64,000 nt of DNA from Candidatus Aenigmatarchaeota archaeon (GTDB taxonomy: Archaea; Aenigmatarchaeota; Aenigmatarchaeia; QMZP01; JAFGSV01): positions 164,661 to 228,660 of the forward strand of contig JAFGFG010000009.1 of the NCBI GenBank assembly GCA_016931255.1, written 5' to 3'. The notes below the pieces were generated by a model. The model was given only the letters and a program-made list of their open reading frames with translations, was not told the origin of the DNA and did not search any database. Both the position numbers and the translations under genes were made by a program. Shown piece after piece: positions 52,257 through 58,637 of this stretch; the first letter of the stretch is position 1; each line of letters starts with the position of its first letter.

Positions 52257-52523
52257 TCACTTCACTACAAGCCTGAAATAATCAGCCTCACCGGCTGTCT
52301 GGGACTTTCTTGTTATCTTTATTACCTGACCAGGGACTGCTCCAATCATCTCTATGACCGGATCAGAAGAACGTATTTTCGGCAACTGGCTTTCTGTGAC
52401 ACCGTATTTTTCTAAAACAGCTTTCTTTTCTGCGTCCTTAAGAATTTCATGTTTCGGCACAAGTTCATGTTTCGTTATATCTACTATGCAATCACCCTCG
52501 AGTCTGCGAATCCCCAGTAACAT
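52257..52523 (-). CDS. rpoH: DNA-directed RNA polymerase subunit H
   Basis: Rpb5-like, with HELVPKHEIL and GQVIKITR. Confidence 0.85.
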   Translation of the reverse strand: MLLGIRRLEGDCIVDITKHELVPKHEILKDAEKKAVLEKYGVTESQLPKIRSSDPVIEMIGAVPGQVIKITRKSQTAGEADYFRLVVK

Positions 52524-52549
52524 TGTAAATAGATGAATTAACTATTAAA

Positions 52550-52575
52550 TCACTCGCATATATATAAACCTTTCG
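52550..52575 (-). promoter_or_regulatory. Putative TATA box for the rpoH-rpoB-rpoA operon
   Basis: On the minus strand, GGTTTATATATATGCG lies about 35 nt upstream of the rpoH ATG. Confidence 0.35.
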
Positions 52576-52649
52576 GTGTTTGGGCCAAAAACTCCTCAAA
52601 ACAGCGTTTTCGCATGCAAATATTCATTCTGCGGTCTGTAAAAATGTAA

Positions 52650-52887
52650 TGGGCCCGGCAGGATTTGAACCCGCGACACCCAGGTTTGTTCTGTCATCGG
52701 ACCCTTTTGCGGTTCAGTGGTTCGCAAAGCGTCCACGGAAAACCTCCGCTTGGGGGTCCTTTACACGCTTTTAACGCGTTTGCTGAAGCTTTTTGAAAGC
52801 TCCAATGACATTAAAAGCTTCACCTGAGGTGCTGCACAACGTGCAACACGCTCGTCTAGTGCTCTAGCCAGACTGAGCTACGGGCCC
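52650..52887 (-). tRNA. tRNA-like gene with a ~160-nt structured insert (probably one or more introns). Isotype and exon junctions are unresolved
   Basis: The minus strand begins GGGCCCG-TA-GCTC-AGTCTGGCTA-GAGC (acceptor and D-arm). It ends A-CCTGG-GTGTC-GCGGG-TTCAAAT-CCTGC-CGGGCCC-A (anticodon-stem 3' half, variable loop, T-arm, acceptor, discriminator). In between are 9-10-bp hairpins (GAAGCTTTT/AAAAGCTTC) and a TAGACGAGC motif shared with the tRNA-Tyr intron. Confidence 0.55.
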
Positions 52888-53183
52888 ATTGCAAAGAAAT
52901 ATGGTTTCGTACTTTTAAATTAGTTAAGAAGAATCCGGACAGGACCCCTGGCGCAAAAGGCCCTGTCCGGCATGGAGGAATTTAATTTTCACGGACTATC
53001 GAATCATAGTCTTTTTCCCTTTCCAGGTGCTGCGAGCACAGGCACACTGTAAGGTCCTTTATGGTGCATCTGAATTCACTGTTTAATCCGCACGCTATGC
53101 AGGTCATGATAAAGCATTTGTATTCCGCTTATAAAGACTTTTCCCGACTTCTGTCCAGTGTTATTCCCAAATCTTTTCCGAGT

Positions 53184-53465
53184 CTATTCCCAGGTCACGT
53201 ACAGAAGCACGAGAAGTCCCATCATCTCAAGGAACTTGACAACTAGATGGAATGTCGTTATGGATGTTATTCCCTGCAAAAGAAGGGAGTTGTAGAAGTA
53301 CAGGCTCATAGCGTTCTCTAAGAGGAACATGACAGCGAAGAACAGCATCCCCATTGTCATCTTTGATTTAACGAGCTTGTGGTTCCTGGAGTATATGTAT
53401 ATGAGAACCAGCGTGAGGACCACATTCAGGCCGCTTATCCCGAGAACTATCTCATCAAACATCAC
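53184..53465 (-). CDS. Small membrane protein (3 TM), partner of the wHTH regulator
   Basis: Hydrophobic. Its start overlaps the upstream stop (ATGA). Confidence 0.45.
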   Translation of the reverse strand: MMFDEIVLGISGLNVVLTLVLIYIYSRNHKLVKSKMTMGMLFFAVMFLLENAMSLYFYNSLLLQGITSITTFHLVVKFLEMMGLLVLLYVTWE

Positions 53466-53755
53466 TTCTCACCTACCTTATTCTTTATTTCATTAAATAT
53501 ATCTTTTACGTTTTCGAACATTGCTGACGGGAAGTAAATTGTGCCGTATTTCTTCTCCTCTGCTGTGAGCACCCTGTTTTCCTCAAGGACGCGTATGTGG
53601 TGCTGGACAGTCTTGTAGTCGAGTTTGAGCTCCTTGCTTATCTGATGCATGTTGTATGGTCTCTTTTCGAGAAGGTTAACTATCCGTACCCTTGTCGGGC
53701 CGCCTTTGGTTGTAGCAAAGACATACCACAAAATCCGGCCGAAATTCCCGTTCAT
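53462..53755 (-). CDS. Winged-HTH transcriptional regulator
   Basis: It has ILWYVFATTKGGPTRVRIVNLL and MHQISKELKLDYKTVQHHIRVLEE. Confidence 0.6.
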   Translation of the reverse strand: MNGNFGRILWYVFATTKGGPTRVRIVNLLEKRPYNMHQISKELKLDYKTVQHHIRVLEENRVLTAEEKKYGTIYFPSAMFENVKDIFNEIKNKVGEK

Positions 53756-53789
53756 TGCTTTATTTTTCGTCAGAGAATTAAAAAAACAG

Positions 53790-53862
53790 CGCCCCGACCG
53801 GGATTTGAACCCGGGTCATGACCGTGACAGGGTCATATGCTAGGCCACTACACCATCGAGGC
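53790..53862 (-). tRNA. tRNA-Asp (GUC)
   Basis: The minus strand reads GCCTCGA-TG-GTGT-AGTGGCCTA-GCAT-A-TGACC-CTGTCAC-GGTCA-TGAC-CCGGG-TTCAAAT-CCCGG-TCGGGGC plus discriminator G. It forms a cloverleaf with anticodon loop CUGUCAC. Confidence 0.85.
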
Positions 53863-54093
53863 AGGTGAAATAAATTATGCAGCAACATCTTTTAAAGGTT
53901 TGCTGTTTCCGAGAAATATAAGAATTGGCAGCGATCTGGATTTCCCAGCCGAAACCAGTAATGTCCAGACCGTCAGAGAGCTTGACTTCCGTGTTCGAAA
54001 AGGGAACGGGTAAACCTCTCTCCTTTGGCCGCCGAATATTATATTACATGTGTCATTTATAAAGGTATTCCTTTGAAGGTTTCTATTGGTAAT

Positions 54094-54729
54094 ATGATAA
54101 AGGCAGTGATATTCGACTGGGACGGAACCCTTGCAGACAGCCTGAAGTACCATTATGCAGCATACAAGGTTGCACTTGAGCCTTATATGAAGCTGAAACC
54201 CGGGGACATCTATAAGAGGGAAGGCGGAAAGAGTATGGATATTATTTCAGACCTTCTGAGGAACGTTCAGATAGATGAGTATGAGATGAAGAGGATTGTT
54301 GAAAGAAAGCAGAAGTATTACAAATATAATGCAGTCTCAATCAGGATGCTTCCTGGTGGAAGGAAACTCATAGAGAATCTGAGGAAACTCAATTTCAAAA
54401 TAGGGCTTGCGACAGGCACTCACAGGGAAGGTCTTATGATGAGCCTTAAGGAAGACGAAGTCGGACTGTTCGATTATATTCTCACAGCTGACGAGACCAA
54501 GAAGGCAAAGCCGGACCCTGAGCCTTACATTAACTGCATGAAGGCGCTTGACGTGAGGCCCGAGGAGACCGTAGTAATCGAGAATGCGCCTCTCGGAGTC
54601 GAGTCAGCCAAGAGCGCAGGATGCCTTTGCGTGGCCATAACGAGCACCGTGAAAAAAGAAGACCTGAAAAGGGCTGATTTCGTGGTCGGGAGCCTCGATG
54701 AAGTCGGGGACATCATAAAGAGCCTCTGA
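54094..54729 (+). CDS. HAD-IA family hydrolase (beta-phosphoglucomutase/phosphatase-like)
   Basis: Motif I VIFDWDGTLADS, motif II GLATGT and motif IV ENAPLGVESAKSAG. The start is re-set to MIKAVIFDWDG. Confidence 0.75.
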   Translation: MIKAVIFDWDGTLADSLKYHYAAYKVALEPYMKLKPGDIYKREGGKSMDIISDLLRNVQIDEYEMKRIVERKQKYYKYNAVSIRMLPGGRKLIENLRKLNFKIGLATGTHREGLMMSLKEDEVGLFDYILTADETKKAKPDPEPYINCMKALDVRPEETVVIENAPLGVESAKSAGCLCVAITSTVKKEDLKRADFVVGSLDEVGDIIKSL

Positions 54730-54811
54730 GTTTTCCGCTATCTTCTCGCTGCACATTCCAAACTTCCGTTTTCTGGCGTGCGCCACTGGGAAATGTTTAT
54801 AAATCCGGCTT

Positions 54812-55363
54812 TTGAATACACCCATCTATATGAAAGCCAACATCGTGCTGGAGGACATCGGTTCCAATGCATGGGAGAAATATGCAGGCCATATAATGCA
54901 GCTTGAGAATACATATCCCGAGTCCATGAGGTCCACTGAGGACGACATGGCTTATATACTGGATTCTGAGAAGAAAGTGGCCAAGATAGCATTTTCAGGC
55001 AATGAATGTCTGGGTGCTATCATAGGATTTCATGTCGCTCCGGAAGATTACGACTACTACGGGCTCTCCGGAATTCCCGAAGGCGCGAAAGTTATATACC
55101 TCATGAACATGGTCGTTAATCCGAAATACAGGGGAATGGGCTTCGGAAGGATGCTCCTGAATGAATTCATAAAGGATTCCAGAAAGAATGAATTCCATGT
55201 GATTGCAGGCCATTTCAGGCAGTCTTCCTCGCTTAATGCATTCAGGAAATCCGGTGGAGTGGAGAAGGCAGTCTTCAGTAACTGGGAAGGATCCGGAGAG
55301 GATTTCGTGCTCTGCTACCTGAATCTCTTCGGCATGACTCAGTCTCTTCCTGTCCCGGCATAG
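54812..55363 (+). CDS. GNAT-family N-acetyltransferase
   Basis: Motif A VVNPKYRGMGFGRMLL. Confidence 0.65.
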   Translation: MNTPIYMKANIVLEDIGSNAWEKYAGHIMQLENTYPESMRSTEDDMAYILDSEKKVAKIAFSGNECLGAIIGFHVAPEDYDYYGLSGIPEGAKVIYLMNMVVNPKYRGMGFGRMLLNEFIKDSRKNEFHVIAGHFRQSSSLNAFRKSGGVEKAVFSNWEGSGEDFVLCYLNLFGMTQSLPVPA

Positions 55364-55852
55364 TGAAAGCCTCGCGATTGAAAAACATATTTTCCTCACA
55401 TCTATGAAATTATGAAGGACATGTATCTGCGGCTACGGGGTCCAAGAACGAATGACCCCGCTAAACCGAATCTGTATCGAATATGTATCTATTCCTGCCC
55501 GGAGCCGGTGTAACCTGAGTCGTCACGGCTCCTGCGGCCGGAACGTAGTCTGCCTTCCCGTCAGCATACGAATGGAATATGCTTTCCAGATCCCATATGT
55601 CGCACATCTTTTCCATTTTTTCCATAAAGTCTTCGGTCATATTCAACCTCCTTAATTACATGTACCCGCAAGACCAGGACGAAAAGATTAACTTCTTCTG
55701 CCATGAAGGAGAACCAGTCCGCACCCGGCAACGGCTAATGAAATCACAGAGACTTCATTAGCACGATTAGCAATGCTGGGTGCATGGAATATTATTGGCC
55801 GCGCACCTTTTTAAGCATAGTGCTTTCACACGTGTTCCGGAAAAAATAAGAA

Positions 55853-56048
55853 ATCCCGAGAGGGAGATTTGTCCGCTCCTTTTCCGTTGACGCTTTTTCA
55901 TGTCTCTAACCGAAAAGGGTCATTGAACTCCCGGCCTATCGGTCTCTTTCGAGCGACTGCGTCCAACAAACACACTCATAAGACCGTGCATATATCACGG
56001 TGTGCTCGTCTACAGCCGATCGCTCTAGCCAGTCTGAGCTACCTCGGG
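55853..56048 (-). tRNA. tRNA-Tyr (GUA) with two putative introns (66 nt after position 37, and about 50 nt in the T-loop)
   Basis: The minus strand begins CCCGAGG-TA-GCTC-AGACTGGCTA-GAGC-G-ATCGG-CUGUAG. A 66-nt intron follows, then A-CCGAT-AGGCC-GGGAG-TTCA, a second insert, then AAAT-CTCCC-(T)-TCTCGGG-A. The anticodon loop CUGUAGA equals the canonical archaeal tRNA-Tyr loop. The anticodon stem ATCGG/CCGAT, the T stem GGGAG/CTCCC and the acceptor CCCGAGG/TCTCGGG pair perfectly or with one G-U. There is one extra T at the T-stem/acceptor junction. Confidence 0.55.
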
Positions 56049-56092
56049 ATTTGTATAGAATATAAGAAGAGATAAACCTTAAAAAAGTAAGC

Positions 56093-57439
56093 TTATGCGG
56101 CCAGATGGATGTCTTTCGTCCTGACCTTTGTTTTCTTGCCCTTTTCTGTCACATATCTCATGTAGGCTTTAGGCACCTTGAGATTGCCCTTCACAAGAGG
56201 GGTGACCCTGTAGTGGATTATCCGGTGGTCGCCCGGCTCTATGACAGGAAGATTCCAGATGAGCTCTGTGCCGTCTTCCATGTGCTTGAGCACAGGCTTG
56301 ACGGACTCAAATTCGTGCCTGACCTTGAATAGTGGTGATACAACGTCCCTCACGACAACATCGGTTATTTTCCTTCCCGCATTCTTTATCTCGATGACTG
56401 CAGTGTATGAACCATCATCTCCTGTTTTGAATTTCTTGCTGAGTGCCGGAACATTTATCCTGTTCCAGCCGAAAATAATGAAACCTCCGAGAAGAACTGC
56501 TATCAGGAGTCCTTCAGCGAACAGCGGCCAGTATTCTATTCTGTACTTTATCTCTGCGCTTTCCTTCGGCCCGAGCGAAAGCGTCCATTCGCATTCCCCG
56601 TTCTCGCACTTGTCGGGCTGCTGGACGAATGACACGAATCCTGTCGGAAGCGTTGATACAACAGTGTATCCGTCTTCATGGACATTACCCTCGTTAGACA
56701 CGCTTATGATTTTTTCATCGTACATCGACCCGGACACATCGTTTTCTGTTGTCACAATCATTCTTACAGGCTCTACTTTTACAATATCCTCAAAAGCGAT
56801 TGTTGTCCCTTTCACATATACTTTCAGCGTGTATGTCCCAGCTTCAAGTTCTCCAGTGAGGTCAAGCGTTTCAGTCACTTGGGTTTCCCCGTTTATCATG
56901 TATGACTTCGTGTACGCAGCTGAGTTAATGCCCCCTGAATTAACGAGAATGTAATCAACTGTTATATCCTCTTTCTGGGATGAGACAAGGTTCATTGTTA
57001 CAGTCGCTGCGTTGTCTTTCATGGTTATGCTGTGTCCCATGTCATCAACCTTCTCCCCTGAACGTACAATAAGCGTTATGTCTTTGCTGACCTTCAGCGA
57101 CTTGTCAAGGAATGATTGGAGGTGTACAATGTATTCGTATACGCCGGTCTTGTCATTGGGATAGAACTCCATCTCTATGTCCTTGGCATTAAGCAAGGGC
57201 ATATCAATGTAAGAGGTTCCCATGCTTATCCAGCTTGAAGGAGTCCCTTCAATGAACAGGTAAAGTCCTCCTTCCTGCATGTCGCTCTCGACATGCGCTG
57301 TGAAGAACGCAGAATTGAACGGTGTTGTGGTTTTCTCGTTTTCAGCTATATCCAGGCTGAAATCCATGGCCGAAGCAAAACTGAATGTGAGAAGAAACAC
57401 AATGAACATCGACGTCAAAATCTTTTTCACAATAACCAC
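56093..57439 (-). CDS. Secreted, membrane-anchored surface protein of unknown function
   Basis: A Sec signal (FIVFLLTFSFASA), a beta-rich ectodomain, a TM (LLIAVLLGGFIIFGW) and a C-terminal about 125-aa domain. Confidence 0.45.
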   Translation of the reverse strand: MVIVKKILTSMFIVFLLTFSFASAMDFSLDIAENEKTTTPFNSAFFTAHVESDMQEGGLYLFIEGTPSSWISMGTSYIDMPLLNAKDIEMEFYPNDKTGVYEYIVHLQSFLDKSLKVSKDITLIVRSGEKVDDMGHSITMKDNAATVTMNLVSSQKEDITVDYILVNSGGINSAAYTKSYMINGETQVTETLDLTGELEAGTYTLKVYVKGTTIAFEDIVKVEPVRMIVTTENDVSGSMYDEKIISVSNEGNVHEDGYTVVSTLPTGFVSFVQQPDKCENGECEWTLSLGPKESAEIKYRIEYWPLFAEGLLIAVLLGGFIIFGWNRINVPALSKKFKTGDDGSYTAVIEIKNAGRKITDVVVRDVVSPLFKVRHEFESVKPVLKHMEDGTELIWNLPVIEPGDHRIIHYRVTPLVKGNLKVPKAYMRYVTEKGKKTKVRTKDIHLAA

Positions 57440-57542
57440 CTAATCATTTGTGGTAGTTTATTGAATCTTAAATTTATAAAGGCTACTACAGAAAGGAAAA
57501 CAGCCAAGATTTATATTTGATTTTTTCAATATAGTCGTACAC

Positions 57543-57617
57543 GGGATCGTAGTGTAGCTTGGCCTAGCATCGGAGCTTCGGGAGTTCCAGACCTGAGTTC
57601 AAATCTCAGCGATCCCA
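57543..57617 (+). tRNA. tRNA-Pro (CGG)
   Basis: GGGATCG-TA-GTGT-AGCTTGGCCTA-GCAT-C-GGAGC-TTCGGGA-GTTCC-AGAC-CTGAG-TTCAAAT-CTCAG-CGATCCC-A. Confidence 0.85.
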
Positions 57618-57638
57618 TCAGTAATCAACTGGAAATGG

Positions 57639-57713
57639 GGGGCCGTAGTGTAGCTTGGCCTATCACTCGGGGCTGGGGGTCCCGTAACCGGAGTTCGAAT
57701 CTCCGCGGCCCCA
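57639..57713 (+). tRNA. tRNA-Pro (GGG)
   Basis: GGGGCCG-TA-GTGT-AGCTTGGCCTA-TCAC-T-CGGGG-CTGGGGG-TCCCG-TAAC-CGGAG-TTCGAAT-CTCCG-CGGCCCC-A. Confidence 0.8.
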
Positions 57714-57788
57714 TTGAACACTTTTAGAAAAAGCGCTCCCGGAAAATCCTGAAAGGTCTTTTTTATTTGATTTAGGACAACTATTACT

Positions 57789-58637
57789 ATGCTTGGCTGG
57801 ATACTGCTCGCCATTGGAATCGCCGGTTTCGGCTATGGCGGCTGGAAAGACCTAAAGACAACGGAATTCCATGACTGGCTTCCGTACTCAATGATAATAG
57901 CAGCACTCGCTGTGCGGGGGATTTTCTCCTATATCACAGGAGACCTTTCCATCATAACAGGTTCCGTCTTCTATGGGCTGCTGTTCCTCGGCTTCGGATA
58001 TCTCCTCTACTTCGCAAGGCAGTGGGGTGATGGCGATGCATGGCTCATGGGCGCATTGGGATTCCTCTTTCCGGACAGCGCAGGTTTCATTCCACCGCTG
58101 ACAGACATAATGCCTTTCCCGTTCGTCCTTGTTTTTAACTTCTTCCTGCTTTCCCTCTTGTACCTCATAGGATATGCGTTTATACTCGGAATGATGAAGC
58201 CGCATGTTGTCAGGACTTTCAGGAAGAATCTGAAGAGCAGGATAAAAGCGATATATGCGATATTCATATCAACAGGCATTGCATCTGTTGCAGTTCCCCT
58301 TTACATGAGTTATACTTATTCAGTTCCTCTTGAAAGCTTCGCGGGCATTTTCACCATTCCGTTCATAGGGCTTTTCATGATGTTCTTTTTCCAGTATGCA
58401 AGGGCTGTTGAGAACGACTTGTTCAAGAGGAAGATAAAGGCCAAGGATCTTCATGAAGGTGATGTGATAATAACTGACAAATGGAGAGGCATTACGGAGA
58501 AGGAAGTCAAAGAGCTTAAGATAAAAGGCGGGGATGTGTGGATAAAGGAGGGGGTGCGGTTTGCACCTGTGTTCATTCTCACGCTTCTCTTCACAGTTTT
58601 CGTCGGCAGTCTTACGGTTATACTATTTCCTCTTTGA
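57789..58637 (+). CDS. Archaeal prepilin/preflagellin peptidase (A24 family, FlaK/PibD-like)
   Basis: The first catalytic Asp motif WKDLKTTEF (DLKxRxI-like) follows TM1. The second is QWGDGDAWLMGALG (GxGDxKL-like). It has 6 or more TM helices plus a C-terminal domain. Confidence 0.6.
   Translation: MLGWILLAIGIAGFGYGGWKDLKTTEFHDWLPYSMIIAALAVRGIFSYITGDLSIITGSVFYGLLFLGFGYLLYFARQWGDGDAWLMGALGFLFPDSAGFIPPLTDIMPFPFVLVFNFFLLSLLYLIGYAFILGMMKPHVVRTFRKNLKSRIKAIYAIFISTGIASVAVPLYMSYTYSVPLESFAGIFTIPFIGLFMMFFFQYARAVENDLFKRKIKAKDLHEGDVIITDKWRGITEKEVKELKIKGGDVWIKEGVRFAPVFILTLLFTVFVGSLTVILFPL

Follow-up and report, generated by a model that had tools for sequence, protein, structure and literature searches.

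A predicted tRNA-Lys(UUU) gene with two introns and an anticodon micro-exon in a Candidatus Aenigmarchaeota archaeon

Introduction

The bulge-helix-bulge (BHB), the motif cut by the archaeal splicing endonuclease (EndA), consists of two 3-nt bulges, a 4-bp central helix, and outer helices on the exon and intron sides. tRNA genes carrying several BHB introns, at position 37/38 and at non-canonical sites, have been described in Thermoproteales and Thaumarchaeota, including Pyrobaculum calidifontis and Thermofilum pendens, with up to three introns per archaeal tRNA gene (PMC8450103), and the known cases are handled by tRNAscan-SE 2.0 and SPLITSX. Here we analyse a 238-nt tRNA-like locus in a 64,000-nt stretch of contig JAFGFG010000009.1 (hereafter the window), whose host is a member of Candidatus Aenigmarchaeota, a DPANN archaeon. 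A database RpoH with a sequence identical to the one encoded in the window carries the annotation Candidatus Aenigmarchaeota archaeon. We conclude that the locus is very probably a functional tRNA-Lys(UUU) gene composed of three exons and two BHB introns. Multi-intron, BHB-spliced archaeal tRNA genes are already known as a kind, and the window gene is a new member of it, resembling the described cases in its pairing of a 37/38 intron with one at a non-canonical site. What is notable about it is the combination of introns at 30/31 and 37/38, a 7-nt micro-exon that carries the anticodon loop alone, and an unusually long (126 nt) intron with a nested, inverted sequence module; these features and the DPANN host distinguish it from the Thermoproteales and Thaumarchaeota genes.

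Incomplete tRNA sets in DPANN genomes point to hidden disrupted genes and make manual curation necessary (PMC5829648), and disrupted tRNA genes in this group have been associated with the epsilon2 EndA of ARMAN-2 and with DPANN alpha4 EndAs containing an L3 loop (PMC3239211; PMC5829648). The lineage of the window is like these in having non-canonical introns that presumably need an EndA of broad specificity; our literature search found no specific description of tRNA introns in Aenigmarchaeota. Intron spread at the DNA level was put forward in a 2010 study, as summarised in PMC4090602, on the basis of near-identical introns in different tRNA genes and positions.

Gene structure

An earlier note on this stretch, made from its letters alone, had recognised an acceptor stem, a D-arm, a T-arm, a variable loop and the 3' half of the anticodon arm, all of which are present on the minus strand (52887 to 52650). 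The parts of the tRNA body, read from the sequence, and the predicted exons and introns are as follows.

52887 to 52650, minus strand: acceptor stem GGGCCCG/CGGGCCC and discriminator A73
Same locus, minus strand: D-arm GCUC-AGUCUGGCUA-GAGC
Same locus, minus strand: T-arm GCGGG-UUCAAAU-CCUGC
Same locus, minus strand: variable loop GUGUC and 3' anticodon-stem strand CCUGG
52856 to 52887, minus strand: predicted exon 1, 32 nt, tRNA positions 1-30 (acceptor 5' strand, D-arm, A26, C27-G30)
52819 to 52855, minus strand: predicted intron 1, 37 nt, position 30/31
52812 to 52818, minus strand: predicted micro-exon GCUUUUA, 7 nt (G31, C32, U33, anticodon U34-U35-U36, A37)
52686 to 52811, minus strand: predicted intron 2, 126 nt, canonical position 37/38
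52650 to 52685, minus strand: predicted exon 3, 36 nt, positions 38-73 (A38, anticodon-stem 3' strand, variable loop, T-arm, acceptor 3' strand, A73)

The earlier suggestion of a non-canonical intron was well founded in that the locus appears to be a genuine tRNA gene with a 30/31 site, but the insert is not a single intron of about 160 nt; it resolves instead into introns of 37 and 126 nt on either side of the micro-exon. In all, 170 nt separate tRNA position 30 from position 38 in the gene. Since G31 and the anticodon loop reside on the micro-exon, inspection by eye had failed to place the 5' half of the anticodon arm. Intron 1 comprises ACGAGC, a 9-bp hairpin GUGUUGCAC-GUU-GUGCAGCAC (52849-52829) and CUCA-GGUG-AA. 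In-silico splicing yields a perfect 75-nt cloverleaf that ARAGORN calls as tRNA-Lys(UUU), with predicted mature junctions ...GAGCACUAG:GCUUUUA:ACCUGG... (colons mark the joins). Its anticodon stem is formed by C27-G43, U28-G42 (a wobble pair), A29-U41, G30-C40 and G31-C39, and the loop is the 7-nt CUUUUAA, with U33 present and a purine at position 37.

Conservation and synteny

The position of the locus is consistent with this identity, as rpoH (52523-52257), an unsplit rpoB and rpoA' lie directly downstream on the same strand, and a tRNA-Lys(UUU) gene precedes rpoH in many archaea. At other loci (designated by L numbers) this gene lacks introns in L008, L009, L025, L037 and L060; intronless versions belong to Methanosarcina, Hydrothermarchaeota and others. 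A single intron interrupts it in L017 and L018, and three do so in L073. The intronless gene of L060 matches the window exons almost base for base. Five orthologues were reached via RpoH and hence independently of the tRNA sequence, namely L082 (RpoH 89% identical), L084 (74%), L002, L003 and the distant L012, and all show the order exon 1, intron, GCUUUUA, intron, exon 3 found in the window. GCUUUUA is also kept in L066, which was found independently of the window sequence and has a homologous long 37/38 intron but none at 30/31; GAGCACCGG-GCUUUUA is contiguous there, which fixes the boundaries of the 30/31 intron exactly. The micro-exon is likewise contiguous with its flanking exons in the intronless homologues (L060, L037, L008 and others). 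Comparison with L066 and the intronless genes thus defines the predicted exon boundaries without recourse to BHB geometry.

The same exons recur in orthologues from more than 12 related genomes, whose introns vary in length and in number (two to four per gene), and in-silico splicing of the 13 complete orthologues gives tRNA-Lys(UUU) in every case. Identity to the window is 88-100% in the exons, 59-90% in intron 1 and 35-84% in intron 2, the last having conserved ends and a length of between 49 and 167 nt among orthologues. Exon differences are compensatory: C6-G67 is replaced by U6-A67 in L086, and A29-U41 by G29-C41 in L012 and L066. On these comparisons the exon parts are not a product of chance. 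The intron 1 hairpin covaries as well, with eight pairs changed on both sides and none of 500 shuffles reaching the observed score, and 91% of its cells are paired against 36-46% with slid partners.

Around this shared core, gene and intron content varies among close relatives. An AbrB/MazE-like gene stands between tRNA-Lys and rpoH in L002, L003, L083 and L084, while the window lacks it, and tRNA-Asp(GUC), intronless in the window (53789-53862), has a T-loop intron of the module type described below in L084 (986-1126) and L092 (~640-870). Both differences show that introns and genes turn over rapidly among close relatives. Orthologues with four introns, at 22/23, 30/31, 37/38 and 59/60, occur in L003 (1607-1952)/L094, L084 (2044-2435) and L085 (minus strand)/L093; they reach 392 nt for a 75-nt tRNA and contain two micro-exons (8-nt AGCACYAG and 7-nt GCUUUUA). 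All of them splice in silico to tRNA-Lys, and the central helices of their D-arm and T-loop introns pair at 4/4 positions. The published maximum is three (PMC8450103), and our literature search found neither a four-intron archaeal tRNA gene nor an archaeal 5S rRNA intron, which is weak evidence that none has been reported. The L073 locus (~2060-2460), from a Guaymas Aenigmatarchaeota metagenome-assembled genome, has adjacent tRNA-Asp and tRNA-Lys genes with near-identical T-loop introns (AUAAGGGCGCCUUCCCCGCCCUUAU...) of a sequence family other than the window module, and looks like a second, independent case of tRNA genes sharing introns.

Splice sites and splicing pathway

Both predicted introns can be folded into BHB-like motifs (bulges in square brackets, exon-intron boundary as a colon). 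The first, BHB 1, reads 5'-AGAG CACU [AG:A] C GAG C (9-bp hairpin) CUC A GGUG [AA:G] CUUU-3' and combines a 4-bp outer exon-side helix (AGAG/CUUU), a central helix CACU/GGUG with 4/4 pairs and two 3-nt bulges, [AG:A] and [AA:G]. The second, BHB 2, reads CUUU [UA:A] UGUCAUUGG ... CCGAUGACA GAAC [AA:A] CCUGG, with a 9-bp intron-side helix, a central helix CUUU/GAAC of 3/4 pairs, and bulges [UA:A] and [AA:A].

Several observations weigh against the two-intron model or reduce what the motifs can contribute to it. Both motifs are relaxed rather than strict as read from the sequence: the intron-side helix of BHB 1 (GAG/CUC and the 9-bp hairpin) begins past a conserved C-opposite-A mismatch, and in BHB 2 C32 is mismatched with C or U in every orthologue but L066, which has a G to pair with it. 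When a simple BHB scorer was run over all site pairs in the gene, decoys equalled or beat the true sites, and BHB geometry was therefore dropped as stand-alone evidence. In BHB 1 neither the outer nor the central helix varies among orthologues, so that covariation is uninformative on them, and RNAalifold, applied to the intron 1 region, missed the 4-bp central helix while recovering the hairpin and the outer exon-side helix. Ten further metagenome loci were picked by an exact 21-nt junction pattern spanning the micro-exon, and since this pattern was the selection criterion, its conservation there is not independent evidence.

Under the two-intron model, transcription from the gene's own TATA-type promoter would give a precursor of about 240 nt, in which EndA would cut at the 3-nt bulges of the 37-nt (30/31) and 126-nt (37/38) introns; the relaxed BHB 2 would need an EndA of broad specificity. 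A ligase of the RtcB type would then join exon 1 (1-30), the micro-exon GCUUUUA (31-37) and exon 3 (38-73), RNase P and tRNase Z would trim the ends, and CCA, which is absent from the encoded 3' end, would for that reason be added post-transcriptionally. The micro-exon bases C32-U35 are claimed twice, in BHB 1 by the outer exon-side helix and in BHB 2 by the central helix, and BHB 1 further occupies the anticodon-stem bases 27-30. Because both motifs require C32-U35 they are mutually exclusive, so that the introns would have to be removed successively with refolding in between. Closely spaced introns in which one removal must precede formation of the next BHB have been described with tRNAscan-SE 2.0 (PMC8450103).

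The intron module and the interior of intron 2

The earlier note had also proposed that this locus and a nearby tRNA-Tyr gene have related introns, on the grounds of a shared junction motif, TAGACGAGC. The motif does stand at the 5' splice junctions of tRNA-Lys (52858-52850) and tRNA-Tyr (56012-56004), and occurs exactly three times in the window. Intron 1 of the tRNA-Lys orthologues begins with ACGAGC, ACGAGT, ACGGGT, TCGGGT, ACGGCT or ACGAAA; only ACGAG is common among these starts, and nothing past ACGAGC is shared with tRNA-Tyr intron 1. The motif is a poor indication of homology because it is only partly kept in the tRNA-Lys orthologues. The two genes are nonetheless related in their introns, but through a module of about 50 nt that lies in the other intron of each, in inverted orientation. 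The first clue to it was a BLAST match of 34/44 positions in inverted orientation. The tRNA-Tyr gene and the copies of the module in the window are as follows.

55854 to 56048, minus strand: tRNA-Tyr(GUA), interrupted at 37/38 by a 66-nt intron (56009-55944) and at 58/59, in the T-loop, by one of 54 nt (55922-55869)
52699 to 52748, plus strand: module copy (ACCCUUUU, hairpin, AAAGCGUCCACGGAAAA) nested in tRNA-Lys intron 2, antisense to the gene
55921 to 55873, minus strand: module copy in the tRNA-Tyr T-loop intron, sense; nhmmer E = 1e-8, with the copy itself in the profile
57727 to 57751, plus strand: partial module copy (GAAAAAGCGCUCCCGGAAAAUCC) in the 3' trailer of tRNA-Pro(GGG), just ahead of a T-tract; nhmmer E = 7e-4

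In-silico splicing of tRNA-Tyr gives 75 nt, called by ARAGORN as tRNA-Tyr(gta). The module takes the form ACCCUUUU, a hairpin, AAAAGCG, four variable bases and GGAAAA. A first nhmmer profile, built from four sense-orientation T-loop introns only, matched window intron 2 at 52701-52742 on the plus strand with E = 0.013, and the orthologues with 3e-4 to 9e-4; an expanded profile, which includes the window intron 2 copy, gave E = 1e-10 there and three copies in the window. By nhmmer, tRNA genes for Tyr, Lys, Asp and Pro carry the module in T-loop introns, and it is nested in the tRNA-Lys 37/38 intron; the copy in the tRNA-Pro(GGG) trailer shows that it is not confined to introns. The occurrence of one module in T-loop introns of four tRNA species is like the transposed introns of the Thermoproteales type, from which this family differs in its antisense nesting, its inversion between orthologues and its copies in the 3' trailer of one tRNA, the 5' leader of another and a 5S rRNA insert. 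Our literature search found no description of antisense or nested, trailer, leader or 5S module cases.

At its nested site in the 37/38 intron the module is antisense in the window, L003, L084, L090, L091 and L066, and sense in L087 (1082-1129) and L088 (3537-3584), with the same flanking short inverted repeat, GRACCC...GGGTYC, in both orientations. This suggests either DNA inversion or independent insertions both ways. The short-form introns 2 (49-51 nt; L002, L012, L082, L085 and L086) lack the module and have a plain hairpin in its place, such as GAACCC-AUCA-GGGUUC in L085. Judging from this comparison, the 126-nt length of the window intron is accounted for largely by insertions, of the module and of a micro-exon-like hairpin, into an ancestral intron of about 50 nt.

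Module copies of two further kinds were observed in related genomes. In L091 (8140-8245) a module-bearing insert lies upstream of tRNA-Lys between 11-nt direct repeats that correspond to the tRNA 5' end (GGGCCCGTAGC ... GGGCCCGTAGC-TCAG), and a TATA box is located upstream of the first. The repeat looks like a target-site duplication; the insert could leave the transcript as a long 5' leader cut off by RNase P or be spliced out as an additional intron. The window, L084 and L091 have 5S rRNA genes of 114 nt, and that of L085 (5258-5105, minus strand) measures 154 nt. Its loop C contains a 47-nt insert with the module, removal of which restores the intronless 5S sequence, and the insert is bounded by a BHB with a central helix UCCC/GGGA (4/4), bulges [AU:A] and [AA:U], and an intron-side helix CACC/GGUG. 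From these features the insert is likely an intron, and a second insert is probably present further 3' in the same gene.

We tentatively propose that the module is a small non-autonomous mobile DNA element of this Aenigmarchaeota clade, which inserts in either orientation, is kept in structural RNA genes only where its ends form a BHB that EndA can remove, and thereby seeds new introns. If true, this would explain the four-intron tRNA-Lys genes, which exceed the published maximum of three, the inversion within the 37/38 intron, the 11-nt repeat of L091, the trailer copies and the BHB-bounded insert of the L085 5S rRNA gene, which may be the first archaeal 5S rRNA intron reported. A comparison of the module core with viral contigs returned four matches, all within unrelated coding sequence, where a rough estimate of the chance expectation is about four.

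A different reading is that the interior of intron 2, module included, is itself a functional RNA, more than a spacer or the remnant of a mobile element: it might be a stable circular RNA, bind a protein, or act as a chaperone that keeps the micro-exon sequestered via UUAAAAGC. A block, UUAAAAGCGUG (52764-52774, minus strand), is invariant in every orthologous intron 2, including that of L066, which has no intron 1; it is complementary to the micro-exon plus A38 (GCUUUUAA) and is paired by both RNAfold and RNAalifold. The block could sequester the anticodon micro-exon, or could be the remnant of a sense copy of the module. Conservation of the module blocks ACCCUUUU, AAAAGCG and GGAAAA across many introns also speaks for a function. 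Set against this, the module is tolerated in either orientation at one nested site and is missing from otherwise intact short-form orthologues, which argues against an essential RNA function of the sense strand, and covariation in the interior is weak (3/44 pairs). On long-form intron 2 alignments RNAalifold found no BHB and little covariation, and the interior fold is ambiguous. We therefore consider a functional RNA in the intron interior rather unlikely. A long stem, GAAGCUUUU/AAAAGCUUC, had been noted in this region; the complementarity exists and the stem is possible, but it is out-competed by a local hairpin, GGAGCUUU/AAAGCUUC, and competes also with the pairing of the micro-exon to the invariant UUAAAAGC block. 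By eye the local hairpin covaries in L091, a change that a MAFFT-based count does not register.

Alternative interpretations of the locus

The earlier note had raised the possibility of a chimeric or pseudo-tRNA left by recombination, that is, two tRNA halves around unrelated inserted DNA and without function. That standard tools give no call, that intron content differs among relatives and that the insert contains a mobile-looking repeated module would all fit such a scar. It is nevertheless very improbable and we reject it, because every close relative that could be checked has the locus in syntenic position, the exons are strongly conserved while the introns diverge, the acceptor and anticodon stems evolve by compensatory change, every orthologue splices to a perfect tRNA-Lys, and the promoter box is conserved.

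Intron-encoded box C/D guides are known from archaeal tRNA-Trp, as in Euryarchaeota, and the long intron of the window might by analogy encode a box C/D (k-turn) guide RNA directing 2'-O-methylation. Like the euryarchaeal pre-tRNA-Trp intron of the Haloferax volcanii type, intron 2 is long (~100 nt), structured and located at 37/38, and the strings that had suggested such a guide, GAUGA (52698-52694) and CUGA (52717-52714), do exist near its 3' end. It differs from that type in having neither conserved C/D boxes nor a k-turn. GAUGA is fully paired in the Watson-Crick helix that closes the intron, UGUCAUUGG/CCGAUGACA, of which 7-9 bp form; in L012 it is replaced by GAUGG, in which the GA step of the box is lost, facing an altered 5' strand UGACCAU with which it pairs by eye. 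The two strings stand in the wrong order, CUGA coming 5' of GAUGA, and L084, L003, L090 and L091 have no CUGA; the 49-51 nt short-form introns lack the entire region. Rfam returned no C/D match even at E <= 10, and over 52300-57900 at that threshold it gave a weak tmRNA-model match on the T-arm/acceptor part only and no other family. A guide RNA is accordingly a most doubtful reading of the intron.

The two-intron model also competes with a reading in which the anticodon arm is imperfect and one long intron of about 144-170 nt occupies a non-canonical site. ARAGORN allowing introns (-i300) yields only a model of this kind at the locus, a Phe(AAA) tRNA of 96 nt with a 144-nt intron, and the pairs C27-G43, U28-G42, A29-U41 and G30-C40 form without the micro-exon; alternatively CUAGA could pair with CCUGG. 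The implausible 96-nt tRNA, the aberrant arm and the anticodon AAA, which to our knowledge is not a normal archaeal anticodon, count against this very improbable reading, and it leaves out the conserved GCUUUUA, contiguous with the exons in L066 and the intronless homologues, as well as leaving the synteny with tRNA-Lys upstream of rpoH unexplained. A split or permuted tRNA was ruled out, all exons being collinear on one strand within 238 nt, and so was a tRNA-Pyl (suggested by CUA in CUAGA), the body being that of a standard class I tRNA-Lys.

Genomic context

Putative signals for independent transcription, read from the sequence, flank the tRNA-Lys gene.

52913 to 52919, minus strand: TATA-like box TTTAAAA, centred ~29 nt upstream of the tRNA 5' end, putative promoter
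52640 to 52644, minus strand: T5 tract, putative terminator, 6 nt past the tRNA 3' end

A TTTAAAA or ATATAAAA box at equal distance is present in most orthologues (L002, L003, L082, L084, L086, L085, L087 and L090), and we infer that it acts as the promoter; T-rich tracts also follow tRNA-Lys in orthologues, and the T5 tract is likely a terminator. Just upstream of the promoter, a GC-rich 15-bp hairpin with a T-rich tail (52935-52970, minus strand) probably serves as terminator for the transcription unit before it, and a comparable hairpin was found in L084. Default ARAGORN and Rfam at the gathering threshold report a tRNA-Asp, two tRNA-Pro and one 5S rRNA in the window and leave the tRNA-Lys locus uncalled. 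A regular-expression sweep of the window for further orphan D-arm and T-arm signatures gave nothing convincing.

Implications

The gene described here may well be the organism's tRNA-Lys(UUU), yet ARAGORN, with or without introns, and the Rfam tRNA model all miss the correct call. Loci of this kind explain "missing" tRNAs in DPANN bins and distort estimates of completeness and decoding, a gap flagged previously (PMC5829648). A 7-nt exon between two BHBs that compete for four bases provides a natural test case for ordered splicing, refolding and EndA of broad specificity. The wider family, with its intron gain and loss, four-intron genes, flipping module and likely 5S rRNA intron, offers a system for studying how BHB introns spread, and may outweigh the window gene itself in importance.

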